NCBI RefSeq assembly: GCF_003072485.1
Contig: NZ_CP025989.1
Coordinates: forward strand, 60,001 to 92,000
Length of the DNA stretch: 32,000 nucleotides
From: Candidatus Fokinia solitaria
GTDB lineage: Bacteria; Pseudomonadota; Alphaproteobacteria; Rickettsiales; Midichloriaceae
Reading direction: 5' to 3'
The translations under genes were made by a program, and so were the position numbers. Position 1 is the stretch's first letter. The number at the start of each line of letters is the position of its first letter. Under the pieces are notes generated by a model. It did no database searches. It was not told the DNA's origin and worked only from the letters and a program-made list of their open reading frames with translations. Below, piece by piece: positions 12,466 through 32,000 of this stretch.

Positions 12466-14349
12466 TTATTTAAACATGTTATCTAACATTGTTTCGTATA
12501 AAAATTTCGTAAATTTATGCGGAGTTTGTATTGGCTCATCTTGCATCAAGCATGCGCATGTAAATAGTGCTTCAATCATATCATTAAGCTTTTCAACATT
12601 CTCATTTCTTTTCAATCTTATTACCATTTCATCTATTAATGGATGCGATTGATTGATTTCTAATACCTTTGTAGATCGTTTTGATAATTGCCCTTGTTCA
12701 ATTAAAAGCTTCTCTACTTTAGAATTCATTCCTCCTTTTGGAATAGATAGACATACTGGACTTTCTTCTAGTTTTTGCGATATCACAACGTCTTTCACTC
12801 TTTCTTTCAATACCTCCTTCATGTGATCTGCTAATTTTTGCACATCTACTTTAGCTTCGAGATGTTCTTTAGTAGTGTCATCTTGCTTATTATCGAGTGA
12901 TATATCTGCGTTCAATACCGATTGAAAATTTTTCTCTTGGTATGATGATACAACAGTTGTCCAGAAGTCATCTACAGCATTAGTTAATAGTAGCACTTCT
13001 ATATCCTTTTTCTTGAATGATTCAAGCTGCGGATTTTGCATTAATTCTTCGAGATTTTTCCCTGTGATATAGAAGATTTCCTTTTGATCCTCTTTCATAT
13101 TGCGTATGTATTCATCCAACGATATAAGCGTGTGCGGAGATTTTGTCGTATAGAATCTGCTAATTGCTAAGATAGCATTTCTTTCACTCTCTAGCATATA
13201 TTGTTCACACAAGCCTTCTTTTATTATTTCTCCAAATAAATTCCAGAATTTTTGACCTTTTTCTTCTTCCATCATCATTTTGCTGATTTCTTCTAGTGAC
13301 TTCTTAACAACAGCGCGTGATATTTTTGTGCACTCATCATTTAATTGAATCGATTCACGATTTATGTTCAACGGTAAACTTTCTGTATCTATTATACCGC
13401 ATAAGAATCTGAGATACGGAGGTATGATGCTAAGTTCGCGATCGCCGATAAAGACTCTTTTGACATACAATTTTACTCCTTTTGCTTTTCTTTCATGATC
13501 GAATAAATTAAAAGGCTTTATACTTGGTACGAATATCAGCGCTTTATATTCTACTCCGCCTTCAGCAGTCCAATGTATGGTACTCATAGGAGCATCCGGA
13601 AGGTAAGAAAGTTTTTTGTAAAATTCATTATATTCTTCTTCAGAGATTGTCTTTTTATCTCTTAGCCATAGCGCTATACCACTATTTACTGGAGTTTTTT
13701 GATCTGCGGAGACGTAGTATATTTTGAAAGGAATGTGTTCAGAGTAAGTTCTGATTATGTCTGTAAACTTGTACTCGTTTAAAGCTGCTGCTGCCTCACT
13801 TTTCAGTTTCAATCTTACTACCGTACCGTGCTTTTTAGTTTCGTCACTCTTTTCTATTGTAAATTCTTCTACTCCGTCCGACTTCCAGATAAAAGTTTCA
13901 TTACTGCCGAATTTTGTAGATATTACGGTTACTTCATCAGCTATCATAAAGCTAGCATAGAATCCTACTCCAAACTGACCAATTTGACCGTTTGCTATTT
14001 CTTTGGAATGTTCTTGTATAAACTTTTGAGTACCAGATCTCGCCACTATACCTAAATTTTGCTCCATTTCTTCCGCTGTCATACCGATACCATTATCGGA
14101 TATTTCTACAATGCCATCTTTCTCATCAAATTTAACCGTTATTTCATATTCTTCCTTTACTGAGTCGATATCTGTACTTTGTTCGCCGGATTGTAAAGTG
14201 TACCTCAATTTGTCACATGCATCTGATGCATTGGAGATCAGCTCACGAATTGCAACATAATCGCCTTGTTTTGTATAAACTGAATGTATCATCATGTGGA
14301 GAAGCTTGGTAGCTTCTGCGCCAAATTTAGATTTTTTAATTGTCGACAT
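12466..14349 (-). CDS. htpG: Molecular chaperone HtpG (Hsp90)
   Basis: 627 aa. LLHMMIHSVYTKQGDYVAIRELISNASDACDKLRY, ISDNGIGMT and IGQFGVGFYASFMIADEV are canonical Hsp90 GHKL motifs. Confidence 0.95.
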   Translation of the reverse strand: MSTIKKSKFGAEATKLLHMMIHSVYTKQGDYVAIRELISNASDACDKLRYTLQSGEQSTDIDSVKEEYEITVKFDEKDGIVEISDNGIGMTAEEMEQNLGIVARSGTQKFIQEHSKEIANGQIGQFGVGFYASFMIADEVTVISTKFGSNETFIWKSDGVEEFTIEKSDETKKHGTVVRLKLKSEAAAALNEYKFTDIIRTYSEHIPFKIYYVSADQKTPVNSGIALWLRDKKTISEEEYNEFYKKLSYLPDAPMSTIHWTAEGGVEYKALIFVPSIKPFNLFDHERKAKGVKLYVKRVFIGDRELSIIPPYLRFLCGIIDTESLPLNINRESIQLNDECTKISRAVVKKSLEEISKMMMEEEKGQKFWNLFGEIIKEGLCEQYMLESERNAILAISRFYTTKSPHTLISLDEYIRNMKEDQKEIFYITGKNLEELMQNPQLESFKKKDIEVLLLTNAVDDFWTTVVSSYQEKNFQSVLNADISLDNKQDDTTKEHLEAKVDVQKLADHMKEVLKERVKDVVISQKLEESPVCLSIPKGGMNSKVEKLLIEQGQLSKRSTKVLEINQSHPLIDEMVIRLKRNENVEKLNDMIEALFTCACLMQDEPIQTPHKFTKFLYETMLDNMFK

Positions 14350-19382: not shown

Positions 19383-20633
19383 ATGAACAATATTACCATA
19401 GCGAATAATTCTTTCATATCAATATATCGTTCGTGTTTGAAGCACGCTCTAACATTACAGGAATGTGTTACCGATATTATGTCAAAAGAATTGAAATCGT
19501 TGTATAATGGTGCGATACAAAACTTATCTAGAATATCGTACGCTATAGACATCAAAACAGATGAATCGCCTGAGCTAGATGCGGAATACATCCAGATGTT
19601 AAATAAAACAGCATTGCGCAATCAAACTCTTTATTTCTTCAAATCTGAAGCGCTGCTTGCGCATGAAAAAATGATGAGAGAACACATTGAAATTATGCAA
19701 GACATGGATGATCAATATGAGGAGATGATTCACCTTCGTACTCTTATTGCACATGGTAACGATATGCTACCGCCTATACGAGCAGAGCAAAAAGAAATGA
19801 GAAGTAATATATATGATTCAGACGATAAGATACAAACTCTAAAGATGATGAAGCCAGTGCTGTATAATGCTGCGTTATACGTGATCCATACGAAAGAAGT
19901 AGCGCCTACAGCGAAAGATTATCGTCTTTTACAGCATGATATGCTTATAGCTGAAAAACTAAATGAGATGCAAATTAAAGAGAAATATGCTGAAAAATTT
20001 ACTGATGCAGATACTTTTATAAAAGAGCACTATGGCAAAGTAGAGGAGTTGCAGGACATTATATCTCATCTTCTAGGTAAGTCCGAAGTCATGATACTTA
20101 CATATCACTCAATGCGTAAGATTCATGAAGAATTAGCAGCGGAGAATATGATGCTTCTGCAATTGAGAATAAAAGAGCAAGTTATGCGGACGCAGCTGAA
20201 AGCTATAGAAAAGGAATATTCTGATATATATGCATTTATTGTAAAAAGTATAGATCTTAAATACACTGGTATATTAGGTGAAATGCACGAACTCTCGGAA
20301 TACATGATAGATTTGCTTTTTGGTACATCTGTTAATACGACGAAAGATGCAGTGATATATAATGTATCCTCGACAGAGTACGAGCAAGCGCCTCTTTCCT
20401 TCTTATCTAAGAGAACGAATGTAGTAAATGATATGCAAGCTGAGCACATACAAGATTCTGTAAATGATACGCAAGCTAAGCACCTACAAGATTTTGTAAA
20501 TGATACACAGGATGAACAGTTATCAGATGATGTACAGAATGAATCTTTAGCAAACTCTGCAGATAACATTAGTTATGAAGAATCAGAATTTAATGATGCA
20601 TCATCTAACATTGCTATGCATAATGATCTGTAA
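19383..20633 (+). CDS. Hypothetical protein, tandem paralog 1 of 3 (helical, with an acidic repeat-bearing C-terminus)
   Basis: 416-aa ORF with no signal peptide, TM segment or enzyme motif that I can recognise. It is rich in E/K/L/M/Q heptad-like stretches. The C-terminus has 3 x 12-aa repeats (VNDMQAEHIQDS / VNDTQAKHLQDF / VNDTQDEQLSDD). Coding status is supported by conservation of the frame across three diverged copies. Confidence 0.8.
   Translation: MNNITIANNSFISIYRSCLKHALTLQECVTDIMSKELKSLYNGAIQNLSRISYAIDIKTDESPELDAEYIQMLNKTALRNQTLYFFKSEALLAHEKMMREHIEIMQDMDDQYEEMIHLRTLIAHGNDMLPPIRAEQKEMRSNIYDSDDKIQTLKMMKPVLYNAALYVIHTKEVAPTAKDYRLLQHDMLIAEKLNEMQIKEKYAEKFTDADTFIKEHYGKVEELQDIISHLLGKSEVMILTYHSMRKIHEELAAENMMLLQLRIKEQVMRTQLKAIEKEYSDIYAFIVKSIDLKYTGILGEMHELSEYMIDLLFGTSVNTTKDAVIYNVSSTEYEQAPLSFLSKRTNVVNDMQAEHIQDSVNDTQAKHLQDFVNDTQDEQLSDDVQNESLANSADNISYEESEFNDASSNIAMHNDL
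20424..20531 (+). repeat. 3 x 36-bp in-frame tandem repeat inside paralog 1
   Basis: The three units are gtaaatgatatgcaagctgagcacatacaagattct, gtaaatgatacgcaagctaagcacctacaagatttt and gtaaatgatacacaggatgaacagttatcagatgat. A degenerate fourth unit occupies 20532-20567. Confidence 0.9.
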
Positions 20634-20821: not shown

Positions 20822-22072
20822 ATGAATAATATTACTATAGCGAATAATTCTTTCTTATTGATGAATGATACATGTATAAGGTATAGTTTATCATTACAAG
20901 AATGTGTCACTGATATTGTGTCAAAAGAATTGGAATCGTTGTATGATGATGCAGTGCGAAACTTCTCTAGAATGTCGCGTACTATAGGTATCAAAACAGA
21001 TGAATCACCTGAGCTAAATGCGCAATACATTCAGATGTTAAATAAAACAGCGTTACGCAATCAAACTCTTTATTTCTTCAAATCTGAAGCGCTGCTTGCG
21101 CATGAAAAAATGATGAGAGAACACATTATATTAATGTATGATGTAGAGAAGCAGTATAAGGAAATTACTCATCTTCGTGCCATTGTTACGCATGGTAACG
21201 ATCTGTTACGGCATATACGAGCAGAGCAAAAAGAAATGAGAAGTAATATATATGATTCAGACGATAAGATACAAACTCTAAAGATGATGAAGCCAGTGTT
21301 GTATAATGCTGCGTTATACGTGATCCATACGAAAGAAGTAGCGCCTACAGCGAAAGATTATCGTCTTTTACAGCATGATATGCTTATAGCTGACAAGCTA
21401 TATGAGATGCAAATCAAAGAGAAATATGCTGAAAAATTTACTGATATGGATACTCTTATAAAAGAGCACTATAGCAAAGTAGAGGAGTTGCAGGACATTA
21501 TATCTCGTCTCTTAGATGATTCCGAAGTCATGATACTTACATATCACTCAATGTGTAAGATTCATGAAGAATTAGCAGCGGAGAATATGATGCTTCTGCA
21601 ATTAAAAATAGAAGAGCAAGTTATGCAGATGCAACTTGAGACAGTAGAAAAAGAGTACTCTGATGTATATGCATTTATCGTAAAGAGTGTAAATCTTCAA
21701 TATACTGGTATATTAAGTAGAATGTATGAATTGTTGCGATACATGGAAGATTTGCTTTTTGGTACGTCTATCAAAACGATAGAAGACGCAACAGTACATA
21801 ATACATCCTCGACAGAATACGAGCAAGTGCCTCCTTTCCTCTTATTTTGGGGAACGAATGTAGTAAATGATATGCAAGCTGAGCACATACAAGATTCTGT
21901 AAATGATATGCAAGCTAAGCACCTACAAGATTTTGTAAATGATACACAGGATGAACAGTTATCAGATGATGTACAGAATGAATCTTTAGCAAACTCTGCA
22001 GATAACATTAGTTATGAAGAATCAGAATTTAATGATGCATCATCTAACATTGCTATGCATAATGATCTGTAA
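20822..22072 (+). CDS. Hypothetical protein, tandem paralog 2 of 3
   Basis: 416-aa ORF, collinear with paralog 1 and with no net length change. Long blocks are nearly identical at nucleotide level to paralog 1, and other blocks are closer to paralog 3. Confidence 0.8.
   Translation: MNNITIANNSFLLMNDTCIRYSLSLQECVTDIVSKELESLYDDAVRNFSRMSRTIGIKTDESPELNAQYIQMLNKTALRNQTLYFFKSEALLAHEKMMREHIILMYDVEKQYKEITHLRAIVTHGNDLLRHIRAEQKEMRSNIYDSDDKIQTLKMMKPVLYNAALYVIHTKEVAPTAKDYRLLQHDMLIADKLYEMQIKEKYAEKFTDMDTLIKEHYSKVEELQDIISRLLDDSEVMILTYHSMCKIHEELAAENMMLLQLKIEEQVMQMQLETVEKEYSDVYAFIVKSVNLQYTGILSRMYELLRYMEDLLFGTSIKTIEDATVHNTSSTEYEQVPPFLLFWGTNVVNDMQAEHIQDSVNDMQAKHLQDFVNDTQDEQLSDDVQNESLANSADNISYEESEFNDASSNIAMHNDL
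21863..21970 (+). repeat. 3 x 36-bp in-frame tandem repeat inside paralog 2
   Basis: Same position and sequence as the paralog 1 repeat, with one substitution (VNDMQAK instead of VNDTQAK). Confidence 0.9.
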
Positions 22073-22303: not shown

Positions 22304-23497
22304 ATGACTAATATTACTATAGCCAACTATTCTTTCGTATCGGTATATAATACATGCATGAAGTATAATTTGACATTACAAAAATGCGTTATCGATATCA
22401 CATCAAAAGAATTGAAATCGTTGTATAATGGCGCGACACAAAACTTGTCCATAATGTCACGTACTATAGGTATTAAAACAAATGAATCACCTGAGCTAGA
22501 CGCGGAATACATCCAGATGTTAAATAAAACAGCGTTACGCAATCAAACTCTTTATTTCCTAAAATCTGAAACTCTGCTTACGTACGAAAAAATGATGAGA
22601 GAACACATTACGTTAATGTATGATGCGGAAGATCAGTATAAGGAAATTACTCATCTTCGTACCATTGTTACGTATGGTAACGATATGCTACAGAATATAC
22701 GTGCAGAGCAAAAAGAAATGAGAAGTAATATATATAACTCAAATGATAAAATACAAACTCTAAAGATGGTGAAGCCAGTGCTCTATAATGCTGCATTATA
22801 TGCGCTTCATACGAAAAAAACAGGACCTACAGAGAGAGATTATTACTTTCTACAGCATGATGAGATCATGATGAACATACTCGAGGAAATGAAGATTAAA
22901 GAGAAATATGCTGAAAAATTTACTGATGTTAATACTCTTACAAAAGAACATTACAGTAAGGTAATGGAGTTACAAGGTATCATACATCACCTTCTAACAC
23001 TCCCTCCTATTATGATATTGATATATGATTCAATGTGTAAAATTCATGAAGAATTAGCAGTAGAGAGTATGACGCTTCTGCAATTAAAAATAAAAGAGCA
23101 AGTTATGCGGATGCAACTGACAGCTATAGAGAAGGAATATTCTGATGTGTATGCACTTACTATAAAGAGTGCAGATCTTAAGTACAATGGTATATTAGGT
23201 GACGTACATGAATTCTCAGAGCATATAGTACATCTTCTTTTGCAGCCTATTATGAATGTTAATGCGTACGGCAAAATGGCGAAGGAAGCTATAGTAGATA
23301 TGCTTTCAACAAAATCAACAGAACACGAGAAAGCGCATAATGCTTCTCTTTTAGTAAATAAGACAGATGAAGTAAACGACATGCAAACTAAACATCTGCA
23401 AAATGTCACAAATGATAGCAGTCATGACGCATTAAATTATGAAGAATCAGCACTTAATGATACGTCATCTAACGTTACTATGCATAATGAACTGTAA
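22304..23497 (+). CDS. Hypothetical protein, tandem paralog 3 of 3 (most diverged, with a shorter repeat tail)
   Basis: 397-aa ORF, collinear with paralogs 1 and 2 over about 330 aa. The C-terminal region differs and retains only about 1.5 copies of the 12-aa repeat (VNDMQTKHLQN VTNDSSHD). It has the same terminal motif, ..NYEES.LND.SSN..MHNEL. Confidence 0.8.
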   Translation: MTNITIANYSFVSVYNTCMKYNLTLQKCVIDITSKELKSLYNGATQNLSIMSRTIGIKTNESPELDAEYIQMLNKTALRNQTLYFLKSETLLTYEKMMREHITLMYDAEDQYKEITHLRTIVTYGNDMLQNIRAEQKEMRSNIYNSNDKIQTLKMVKPVLYNAALYALHTKKTGPTERDYYFLQHDEIMMNILEEMKIKEKYAEKFTDVNTLTKEHYSKVMELQGIIHHLLTLPPIMILIYDSMCKIHEELAVESMTLLQLKIKEQVMRMQLTAIEKEYSDVYALTIKSADLKYNGILGDVHEFSEHIVHLLLQPIMNVNAYGKMAKEAIVDMLSTKSTEHEKAHNASLLVNKTDEVNDMQTKHLQNVTNDSSHDALNYEESALNDTSSNVTMHNEL

Positions 23498-23880: not shown

Positions 23881-23956
23881 TGGTGGAGGCAAACGGATTC
23901 GAACCGATGACCCTCTGCTTGCAAAGCAGATGCTCTACCAACTGAGCTATGCCCCC
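23881..23956 (-). tRNA. tRNA-Ala (anticodon UGC)
   Basis: The reverse complement folds by hand as GGGGGCA TA GCTC AGTTGGTA GAGC A TCTGC TTTGCAA GCAGA GGGTC ATCGG TTCGAAT CCGTT TGCCTCC ACCA. It has the G3:U70 Ala identity pair, anticodon TGC, an encoded CCA and a length of 76 nt. Confidence 0.93.
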
Positions 23957-23967
23957 ATTCTGCATTT

Positions 23968-24042
23968 TGGAGCAGGCGAAGGGAATCGAACCCTCGACTT
24001 CAACCTTGGCAAGGTTGCGCTCTACCACTGAGCCACGCCTGC
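23968..24042 (-). tRNA. tRNA-Gly (anticodon GCC)
   Basis: The reverse complement folds as GCAGGCG TG GCTC AGTGGTA GAGC G CAACC TTGCCAA GGTTG AAGTC GAGGG TTCGATT CCCTT CGCCTGC TCCA. It is 75 nt with an encoded CCA, and lies 11 nt upstream of tRNA-Ala on the same strand. Confidence 0.93.
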
Positions 24043-30094: not shown

Positions 30095-30170
30095 TGGTGA
30101 TCCTGATGCGACTCGAACGCATGACCTACTGATTAAAAGTCAGTTGCTCTACCGACTGAGCTACAGGATC
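30095..30170 (-). tRNA. tRNA-Lys (anticodon UUU)
   Basis: The reverse complement folds as GATCCTG TA GCTC AGTCGGTA GAGC A ACTGA CTTTTAA TCAGT AGGTC ATGCG TTCGAGT CGCAT CAGGATC ACCA. It is 76 nt with an encoded CCA. Confidence 0.92.
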
Positions 30171-30534
30171 ACGGCAGTATCTTGACACTACGAGTGGATG
30201 GTATAAAAATATGGCTGACTTGTCTATATAATTCGGAAGTTTTCTGAAAATTTCCAAGAAGTTGCTTGGTGAACCGATTGGCGCTGAAGAGATGAGGAGA
30301 GGAGGGGAGGAGATGATGGAGAACATGTAATTCTATTTTGTCTCTGAACTTTCGATGTCTTAAAATAACTCACCAAGCAGGCAGGGAGGGCTGTTTCCTT
30401 CATGCGAGTTAACGATCATAGACTGTCACAGTTTGAAACTGTCTCAAGTAGCGCTTTAGAGTATTTCTCATATCCGTTGAATTATTTGGTAGAATTTGGT
30501 AAATCGTACCAGATATGAATGTAGAGCGGATGAT

Positions 30535-32000
30535 ATGAGCTTTGAATTGCTAGGCACGCTGAATAGAGTTCGCAGAAAGAGTAATAAAGGATACGATGTG
30601 CTAAGTCCTATTTATGAACTACTTCTCAATGCTGTCAATGCCGAATGTAATAACGAGAAGGTAGATAAAGATGTTACTATCGAGATAGAATACACAACGA
30701 AGGAGATACATAAGAAAAAGTATATTAATTATATTAAAATTTCTGATTACGGAGTTGGATTTAGCGAAGACAATTTTCAATCATTCAAAAATCTGTACTC
30801 AAGTACAAATCAAAAACTTGGCTGTAAGGGAGTAGGAAGATTTCAAATTATGAGATCTTTTCATCAGATCAAAGTTAAGAGCTTTGATGATAATAAAAGA
30901 TTTTCTTTCGATTTAGCGGAGTGCAACTATAACCAAAACAACATAGAAGGATTTTCAGAGAAACAGAGCCTTAATAGTTGCGATGCTGAAGCGAAAAAAA
31001 CGGTAGTTGAATGTGTTTATGATATAGCGAAAAAGAATAAGGATTTTGATGATGCTATACCTATGGCAGCGCCTGATGAAGAGGACGTGAAGGAGAAAAT
31101 TTTTTCAAAATTACTACTGAAATTAATATTACTTAAGAAAAGTGAATTTTGCATCGATATTAAATTGCAAGGTAAAAGTTTCATTACAAATACTGATATT
31201 GACGATCTGTCTGATATTGAGCAATCTTTTACTATCAAGGATATTGATGATAAGTTTACAATCTATCATTTGGTGACTAACCGTATTAAAGCAAAAACGA
31301 ATGAATGTAGAAATTATATTACATATGTAGCGGATGCTGTTGAGGTGACGAAAGACACATCTTTTTTTCAAGGTAAATCAAAATTTTTATACGAAGATGA
31401 TGAGAAGAAGCGATATATAGGTATTATAGAAAGTGACTATTTAAATAAACATGTTTCAGATAATAGGGAGGAATTTGATATAAAGCAGGAGACTTTTGAT
31501 AGTATTACAGAGAGTTGCAATGAACAAGTTGAGCGTAAGCTGAAAAAGGAACTCGAAAAGTACTATTCTGTTCAAGAGGATAAAATTAATAGAGTAAACG
31601 ATATGTATCCATTCTTAAAAGTAAAAGATCGATGTTTTGAGTACAAGCCGGATGACACGGAGGATGATATAGCTGAAAAAGGTTACATTTATTTGGCAAA
31701 AAAAGGATTTAAAAGCTTTAATGGTCTTAAAGAAAGGCTACTACAGTTCAATGAGAAGATAGCAGATAACATAAAGGACAAACAAGGAACATTATTTCCA
31801 GAGACTTCTTTAAAAGAAGAAATTTGTAATATAGCTGACGCAATTCAGAATGTTAGGAAGGATTCTTTAGCACGCGCGGTAACAGAAGAGTATGTAATCT
31901 TGCGGTTACTCGAAGAATATATTAAGCAAGAAAGTAAAGAATCTTGTATACATGAGCTTGTCTTTCCAAGATTTAAAAAGTACAGTAACGAAGAAAAAGA
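30535..32000 (+). CDS. GHKL-superfamily (Bergerat fold; MORC/Hsp90/MutL-like) ATPase domain protein. The 5' end is complete and the 3' end runs off the window.
   Basis: Absent from the ORF track because it has no stop in the window. I translated 488 codons by hand from the ATG at 30535 without meeting a stop. The N-box is YELLLNAVNAE, the G1 box is KISDYGVGFSEDNF and the G2 box is LGCKGVGRFQIMRSF. The rest is K/E-rich and helical, ending in ...ESCIHELVFPRFKKY at the window edge. Confidence 0.75.
   Translation, partial: MSFELLGTLNRVRRKSNKGYDVLSPIYELLLNAVNAECNNEKVDKDVTIEIEYTTKEIHKKKYINYIKISDYGVGFSEDNFQSFKNLYSSTNQKLGCKGVGRFQIMRSFHQIKVKSFDDNKRFSFDLAECNYNQNNIEGFSEKQSLNSCDAEAKKTVVECVYDIAKKNKDFDDAIPMAAPDEEDVKEKIFSKLLLKLILLKKSEFCIDIKLQGKSFITNTDIDDLSDIEQSFTIKDIDDKFTIYHLVTNRIKAKTNECRNYITYVADAVEVTKDTSFFQGKSKFLYEDDEKKRYIGIIESDYLNKHVSDNREEFDIKQETFDSITESCNEQVERKLKKELEKYYSVQEDKINRVNDMYPFLKVKDRCFEYKPDDTEDDIAEKGYIYLAKKGFKSFNGLKERLLQFNEKIADNIKDKQGTLFPETSLKEEICNIADAIQNVRKDSLARAVTEEYVILRLLEEYIKQESKESCIHELVFPRFKKYSNEEK

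Follow-up and report, generated by a model that had tools for sequence, protein, structure and literature searches.

We analysed a 32,000-nucleotide stretch of the 'Candidatus Fokinia solitaria' chromosome (NZ_CP025989.1, positions 60,001 to 92,000 of the forward strand; hereafter the window) and focused on an open reading frame (ORF) that runs off its right-hand edge, at window positions 30535–32000 (+). The ORF likely encodes a single-polypeptide ATP-dependent DNA nuclease, a Shedu of the paraMORC3/GHKL type (type I-D), of which the Fokinia gene would be a divergent but intact copy. The full-length protein has the domain order GHKL ATPase, S5-like transducer, helical region, and PD-(D/E)xK nuclease, and it carries conserved catalytic signatures. 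The family is already known and one of its members has been validated; the unusual point is that an obligate endosymbiont of Paramecium, with its tiny genome, carries such a gene.

Translation of 30535–32000 gave 488 codons without a single stop up to the window edge. This agrees with an earlier, sequence-only reading of the same DNA, which had also remarked that the mechanical ORF list omits the ORF, as it does only because the frame runs off the window. A database search recovered the whole 672-aa protein, P0001, with 100% identity across the 488 aa, and its length places the end of the gene near position 32553, some 553 nt past the window. Like the other proteins of the window, P0001 forms a singleton cluster. 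P0001 aligned with the family profile from end to end (profile positions 1–673 to residues 1–669). This alignment excludes a frameshifted pseudogene, an outcome that the sequence-only reading had allowed for. The start codon at 30535 is backed by a sister protein, P0168, whose N-terminus reads MSFDLLG.

Architecture of the ATPase–nuclease

Searching the 488-aa ORF product against Pfam returned only HATPase_c, below threshold (20.7 bits against a cut-off of 26.4; E 6e-4; residues 26–108). Family alignments were more informative. Across alignments of 4, 56, and 277 members, residues E28, N32, D71, G73, G75, G96, G99, G101, R102, E469, and H473 were invariant or nearly so, as were K98, T156, and R311 in the alignments of 56 and 277 members. 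Such invariance argues that the resemblance to ATPase motifs does not arise by chance. The three Bergerat motifs named in the sequence-only reading (ELLLNAVNAE, residues 28–37; ISDYGVGF, residues 69–76; GCKGVGRF, residues 96–103) lie where it had put them and, once aligned, persist as invariant columns of the family. E28 is the presumed catalytic base, as the counterpart of E27 in the Vibrio cholerae protein VcSduA (see below). Among the 56 members searched with Pfam, HATPase_c_3 was found in 23 and HATPase_c in 16.

An AlphaFold2 model of P0001 had a mean predicted local distance difference test score (pLDDT) of 71.5. Searched with Foldseek, it matched GHKL-plus-transducer ATPase modules at E-values of 1e-8 to 1e-6 over 330–490 alignment columns, including those of type II topoisomerases/GyrB (GyrB43), topo VI-B, MORC2/MORC4, SMCHD1, MutL/PMS, and Hsp90. 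Because these matches cover both parts of the module, we assign residues ∼20–165 to a Bergerat-fold ATPase domain and residues ∼180–315 to an S5-like transducer. The transducer region is a beta-rich block modelled with moderate confidence (pLDDT 70–90). The 56-member family profile aligned with residues 216–322 of Mlh1 at E 0.035, and one of the 56 members matched Pfam DNA_mis_repair. Beyond the transducer, the model contains five long helices (residues 318–335, 337–357, 376–415, 424–440, and 444–463), a region that probably corresponds, by analogy with the published VcSduA dimer model (PMC12137116), to the clamp-like middle domain of that protein.

The last third of the protein has its own set of conserved residues. 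E469, H473, W497, D500, S513, D540, and E557-x-K559 were invariant or nearly so in the alignments of 56 and 277 members, and Q573-x3-Y577 was more than 90% conserved. Read together, E...D...ExK...QxxxY matches the pattern of RecB-like PD-(D/E)xK nucleases, which predicts a nuclease of that class. Only the first helix of this domain falls within the window (31930–32000), and the remaining catalytic residues lie past 32000. The segment ESCIHELVFP, within the string ESCIHELVFPRFKKY (residues 469–483), holds E469 and H473, the opening residues of the domain; the impression in the sequence-only reading that the window edge resembles the entry into a PD-(D/E)xK domain was sound. A model of residues 440–672, built from 12 sequences only, showed an alpha-beta-beta-beta-alpha-beta core (pLDDT 77; predicted template modelling score 0.77). 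Its better Foldseek matches, all of them weak (best E 0.017), were mostly PD-(D/E)xK nucleases, among them Can2, NucS/EndoMS, N.BspD6I/R.BspD6I, McrC, Card1, Mus81, and XisH. The coordinates of the features in the window are collected in Table 1.

Table 1. Features of the putative GHKL-type Shedu gene and the adjacent tRNA gene, in window coordinates
Feature	Position	Strand	Evidence
Putative GHKL-Shedu (paraMORC3) gene, first 488 of 672 codons	30535..32000	+	Open frame; identity with P0001; full-length profile alignment
GHKL (Bergerat-fold) ATPase domain, ∼residues 20–165	30592..31029	+	Sub-threshold HATPase_c; Pfam matches of members; Foldseek
Motif I (N-box), E28-x3-N32	30616..30630	+	Invariant in 277 members
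Motif II (G1 box), D71-x-G73-x-G75	30745..30759	+	Invariant columns
Motif III (G2 box/ATP lid), G96-C-K-G99-V-G101-R-F103	30820..30843	+	Invariant or near-invariant columns
Transducer (ribosomal-S5-fold-like), ∼residues 180–315, including invariant R311	31072..31479	+	Model; Foldseek
Long helical middle region, ∼residues 318–465	31486..31929	+	Model
Start of predicted PD-(D/E)xK (Shedu-type) nuclease domain	31930..32000	+	E469 at 31939–31941; H473 at 31951–31953
tRNA-Lys(UUU)	30095..30170	−	ARAGORN and Rfam

A family outside the reference models and its probable link to Shedu

An exhaustive profile search recovered 3,264 cluster representatives (50% identity) at E ≤ 1e-3 and 1,151 at E ≤ 1e-30. 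The best 150 representatives were 655–730 aa long and matched end to end and colinearly; in the family as a whole, lengths of 655–700 aa account for nearly all members. With a consensus query, 2,620 members (90%-identity clusters) were found at E ≤ 1e-20. The distribution is sporadic: phyla with members include Bacillota, Acidobacteriota, cyanobacteria, and, on plasmids, Actinomycetota, and the family is carried by 59 plasmids (30 of them conjugative) and one phage. The phage, vB_RanS_PJN03, encodes a full-length member (ON245412.1, 40034–41977, −) that covers 96% of the consensus at 36% identity; it is annotated as 'N-acetylmuramoyl-L-alanine amidase', which looks like a misannotation.

Public annotation labels the protein 'ATP-binding protein' or 'hypothetical'. 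NCBIfam gave no match for P0001, and a sequence search of the Protein Data Bank (PDB) with P0001 alone and with the 56-member profile returned nothing significant. The family lies outside the Pfam DUF4263, NCBIfam, and PADLOC-DB v2.0.0 models and is an annotation blind spot. One member, P0217, is named 'DUF4263 domain-containing protein' by NCBI, yet it has no match to Pfam-A DUF4263 even at E ≤ 1. Because the family is invisible to these models, surveys that use them will under-count GHKL-type Shedu.

The link to Shedu comes in part from published work. Gu et al. moved paraMORC3-like proteins into Shedu, as homologues whose N-terminal domains are enzymatic (type 1D; bioRxiv 10.1101/2023.08.10.552793). 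VcSduA (V. cholerae A1552VC_00276), a GHKL plus DUF4263 protein formerly called paraMORC3, is of type I-D (PMC12137116). A 2025 study found that VcSduA protects against T1-like phages without killing the host, i.e., without abortive infection, that it suffices alone, with no partner, and that E27A or K557A abolishes its defence (PMC12137116). The counterparts of E27 and K557 in P0001 are E28 and K559. A member on a Vibrio fluvialis plasmid has E27 and K556 and aligned with P0001 over its full length at E 1e-19, and the E-to-K spacing of the family (mode 531–532) brackets the 530 of VcSduA. The exact E27/K557 pair was absent among the top 150 representatives.

The remaining part of the link is a profile–profile comparison. 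We built a Shedu nuclease profile from a V. fluvialis Shedu, the aligned parts of PDB entries 8TI8 and 8PS4, and eight metagenomic relatives; a scan of viral contigs for further relatives of this profile found none. Aligned with it by hhalign, the 277 family C-terminal domains gave a probability of 83.1% (E 8.9e-6; score 44.4; 169 columns); the alignment keeps the catalytic D, ExK, and QxxxY, as well as the terminal beta-alpha unit, in register. For control, profiles were reversed, columns were shuffled (ten controls), and the N-terminal and middle parts of the family proteins were compared as well; all fourteen controls stayed at or below 0.3% probability (E ≥ 0.18; score ≤ 16.3). The comparison was not significant with a single-sequence Shedu template. 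At 83% probability, the profile match suggests that the nuclease domains of the family and of Shedu are homologous, though the former has diverged beyond the reach of the current DUF4263 hidden Markov model.

From the family, a mechanism can be proposed. The GHKL domains would dimerize on ATP binding, as they do in GyrB, MutL, and MORC, and the transducer and helical regions would clamp around DNA, as in the VcSduA dimer model (PMC12137116). The cycle of ATP binding and hydrolysis would then gate the C-terminal nuclease, which would cut the captured foreign DNA. The expected outcome is direct restriction of invading DNA and not cell suicide, and no partner gene would be needed.

The Fokinia locus and competing explanations

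'Candidatus Fokinia solitaria' belongs to the Midichloriaceae (Rickettsiales) and lives in Paramecium; when its chromosome of 837,348 bp was published in 2018, no complete Rickettsiales genome was smaller (Floriano et al.; PMC5905368). Upstream of the gene, the window holds tRNA-Lys, a nuoJ-like gene, an engB-like GTPase gene, and genes for glutaredoxin, Nfu, COQ9, KsgA, and IspDF. In base composition and codon usage the gene is indistinguishable from the neighbouring housekeeping genes: GC content is 0.32, GC content at third codon positions (GC3) is 0.29, and the Kullback–Leibler divergence of its codon usage is 0.055, mid-range among 25 window genes. Recent horizontal acquisition was rejected on these grounds. 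The sequence-only reading had called such a gene unexpected in a reduced intracellular genome; the remark is fair, although GC content and codon usage give no sign of recent arrival. We also rejected a classic 3′-end integration at tRNA-Lys, since the gene lies on its 5′ side and no att-like repeat turned up.

The 364-nt intergenic region between tRNA-Lys and the gene (30171–30534) is non-coding, with no convincing upstream start codon or small ORF, and its promoter-like matches are about as numerous as in shuffled sequence (11 found vs. 10.5 expected). It contains a purine-rich tract, GAGGAGAGGAGGGGAGGAGATGATGGAG (∼30294–30322), and a short palindrome, CAGTTTGAAACTG (∼30428–30440).

Homologues occupy varied surroundings, and no partner gene was conserved across the ∼12 loci examined. 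The closest relative, P0168 (45% identity; locus L011), lies among P2-like tail genes, GmrSD, DUF4268, an ankyrin-repeat protein, HipA, and Fic. Other loci contain AbiTii, BstA_C, and DUF4747 (L013, Moritella viscosa), a complete type I restriction–modification (R-M) operon directly upstream (L005, a Nitratifractor metagenome-assembled genome [MAG]), a Type ISP R-M enzyme with RhuM and a TOTE conflict system (L008, a Bacteroidales MAG), an integrase (L002), DUF3800 (L001), or plain metabolic genes (L006, a Stellaceae MAG).

Three loci merit a closer description. The bacterium carrying P0168 (L011, 6965–14951; GCA_021151765.1, JAGKWR010000005.1) has a GC content of ∼35%; a 923-aa ankyrin-repeat protein is encoded immediately downstream of P0168, GmrSD and DUF4268 lie upstream, and a P2-like prophage lies beside those. 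These features suggest that the carrier is another host-associated bacterium, and the Fokinia and P0168 genes may reflect shared vertical descent or exchange between symbionts. On a V. fluvialis IncC plasmid (NZ_AP028130.1; L014, 1–8013), a canonical Shedu gene (L014:4619–5998; E 5e-34 against the SduA of PDB 8TI8) overlaps a GHKL-type Shedu gene (L014:5995–8013) by 4 nt, which suggests translational coupling of two Shedu variants within one island. The canonical gene supplied the V. fluvialis sequence of the Shedu profile, and the GHKL-type gene encodes the member with E27 and K556. Immediately upstream of the pair is a type I R-M operon in which an additional AAA ATPase gene separates hsdR from the methylase gene. 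A Clostridiales MAG (L007, 9935–19308) encodes a shorter GHKL protein of 393 aa, related over the ATPase domain only, followed by an overlapping 280-aa ORF without Pfam matches, a gene for an N6_N4 DNA methylase, and two large ORFs (893 and 1031 aa). This paraMORC-like R-M arrangement is of another kind, comprising several genes.

Several observations weigh against reading the Fokinia gene as a Shedu-type defence nuclease. The Shedu link draws on a single profile–profile result together with the literature, and we infer the place of VcSduA in the family from architecture, residue numbering, and the Vibrio homologue. The Shedu signature in Pfam, DUF4263 (PF14082), was found in none of ∼66 members including P0001 (E ≤ 0.01 to 1), and the PADLOC-DB Shedu models matched neither P0001 nor any of 56 members. 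The solved Shedu structures 8TI8 and 8PS4 were not in the top 50 Foldseek matches of the C-terminal model, itself a 12-sequence model with weak matches (E ≥ 0.017). A role in defence is not evident in a genome with almost no phage-derived sequence or insertion sequence (IS) content (PMC5905368). Finally, of the 86 columns with conservation of 85% or more, P0001 retains 54, the second lowest count of 277 members (family median 83).

The pattern of this divergence is informative. P0001 is ∼22%–25% identical to typical family members; it has a shorter loop behind QxxxY and lacks the conserved D of the 'YIICD' strand. The lowest count of retained columns among the 277 belongs to P0168 (51 of 86); most substitutions and several indels are common to the two proteins, and both keep all of the ∼18 strictly invariant residues. 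This combination points to an old, distinct subclade of the two, with a maintained catalytic core, and not to random decay. Most likely, the Fokinia gene is a defence or selfish module of long residence, and selection still acts on its catalytic core.

We weighed this against other readings. A domesticated paraMORC3 might serve a housekeeping DNA role instead (repair, recombination, chromosome resolution, or copy-number control), and several features favour that: the GC3 is native and the codon usage mid-range; the neighbours are housekeeping genes, and the 837-kb genome has next to no phage or IS content; and the subclade shares many derived substitutions at positions conserved elsewhere in the family, around an intact catalytic core. 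Iyer et al. speculated that stand-alone paraMORC3 proteins may act apart from R-M, possibly in some form of mismatch repair (PMC2292703). We nevertheless consider domestication unlikely. The only close relative, P0168, sits in a typical defence or mobile island (GmrSD, prophage tail genes, HipA, Fic), conserved synteny with repair genes is not in evidence, and the sole tested family member, VcSduA, is a defence protein (PMC12137116). Fokinia proteins are, according to the genome report, generally fast-evolving (PMC5905368), so that divergence alone is no sign of a new function.

It is likewise improbable that the subclade of the Fokinia protein and P0168 was re-tooled for a non-defence role in protist endosymbionts, such as genome maintenance where the reduced genome is poor in repair genes, or action on the DNA of hosts or competitors. 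If true, such a role would jointly explain the shared derived substitutions, the native composition, and the survival of the gene in a near-phage-free 837-kb genome.

The gene could also be a relic left over from an old defence island, inactive or decaying but not yet deleted. Its standing among the most divergent members, the shortened loop and missing D, and the lack of visible island genes upstream in the window speak for decay. Yet the 672-codon ORF has no frameshift or premature stop, every one of the strictly invariant residues is retained, and most substitutions are shared with P0168 at 45% identity, so they predate the split and have been maintained. Reduced genomes also tend to delete non-functional DNA. 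We give the relic explanation little credence.

The sequence-only reading had expected any partners of the gene to lie beyond position 32000. In that case, the ORF would belong to an R-M or MORC-type system of several genes, and its helicase, methylase, or nuclease partners would be encoded just past the window. There is precedent, in that many MORC and paraMORC genes sit in R-M operons (PMC2292703) and some of the homologues found here directly follow type I or Type ISP R-M genes. However, neighbours are not conserved across the ∼12 loci, some of which lie amid metabolic genes, and the gene next after P0168 encodes an ankyrin-repeat protein. The protein has its own nuclease, VcSduA is sufficient alone (PMC12137116), and nuclease-bearing paraMORC3 genes typically stand alone (PMC2292703). 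Partners are therefore probably unnecessary, and a multi-gene system is very unlikely.

The sequence-only reading had already set aside the common GHKL enzymes, and an identity as MutL, HtpG, a topoisomerase ATPase subunit, or a sensor histidine kinase is effectively refuted: the motifs are present and Foldseek matches include GyrB, MutL, and Hsp90, but neither P0001 nor its relatives match HSP90 (PF00183), MutL_C (Pfam; NCBIfam is blank as well), HisKA, or Toprim, the GHKL domain is at the extreme N-terminus, the C-terminus is of PD-(D/E)xK type, the distribution is sporadic and plasmid-borne, and a genuine HtpG is encoded elsewhere in the window (12466–14349, −; 358 bits).

The preferred reading, an intact GHKL-type Shedu, does not overturn current understanding, and its implications are modest. 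A protein publicly called 'ATP-binding protein' or 'hypothetical' can now be given its correct name. A defence-type ATPase–nuclease, predicted to be catalytically intact and fully ameliorated, persists in a tiny Rickettsiales genome with very few mobile elements, which bears on whether obligate protist endosymbionts still meet foreign DNA or keep such genes for other reasons. The divergent subclade of the Fokinia protein and P0168 also separates the positions at which the family tolerates change from those that are truly essential.

Elsewhere in the window, we noted three tandem paralogues (19383–20633, 20822–22072, and 22304–23497, +) of 416, 416, and 397 aa that are 80% and 60% identical. 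The second and third, when scanned, had no Pfam family and were singleton clusters in a collection of 15 billion proteins. Their C-termini are predicted to be acidic and repeat-like, NDMQAEHIQDSVND(T/M)QAKHLQDFVNDTQDEQ. They are a lineage-specific expanded family and possibly secreted or surface effectors. Just downstream of the array, tRNA-Ala(UGC) and tRNA-Gly(GCC) lie 11 nt apart (23881–24042, −), an ordinary arrangement.

Comparison with known systems

The architecture of P0001 is that of paraMORC3, point by point. As defined by Iyer, Abhiman and Aravind in 2008, paraMORC3 proteins have a GHKL domain whose motifs are intact, an S5 domain, and, at the C-terminus, an additional restriction endonuclease (RE)-fold domain with E-D-ExK motifs that resembles RecB-family nucleases; their genes are sporadic and laterally mobile, those with a nuclease typically stand alone, and the paraMORCs as a group lack the MORC-specific signature motif (PMC2292703). 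The P0001 family shares the GHKL motifs, the S5-like domain, the C-terminal E-D-ExK RE-fold, and the mobile, stand-alone genes. The suggestion in the sequence-only reading of a stand-alone MORC/paraMORC-type conflict ATPase can accordingly be narrowed to the already known type I-D Shedu variant. The 2008 definition was computational and noted prevalence in Proteobacteria and Bacteroidetes, whereas the family recovered here, compared with it by description, is wider.

VcSduA and P0001 are alike in being single polypeptides with an N-terminal GHKL ATPase (with motifs I–IV in VcSduA; PMC12137116), a middle clamp-like region, and a C-terminal PD-(D/E)xK nuclease, each encoded by a stand-alone gene. 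They differ in setting: VcSduA is found in the VSP-II island of a free-living pathogen, whereas the Fokinia copy lies amid the housekeeping genes of an obligate endosymbiont.

Canonical SduA (8TI8, 8PS4) and the P0001 family have nucleases that appear homologous at the profile level, and both are single-gene systems found in defence islands. The N-terminus of canonical SduA is a non-enzymatic inhibitory domain, in place of which the P0001 family has a GHKL ATPase. SduA assembles as tetramers and octamers (Gu et al., bioRxiv 10.1101/2023.08.10.552793), whereas VcSduA has been modelled as a dimer (PMC12137116).

With MutL, MORC, and type II topoisomerases, P0001 shares the GHKL-plus-transducer module and the logic of a GHKL engine coupled to a nuclease. 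Unlike them, it lacks the C-terminal endonuclease or dimerization domain of MutL, Toprim, and chromatin readers, and it carries its PD-(D/E)xK nuclease fused in cis.

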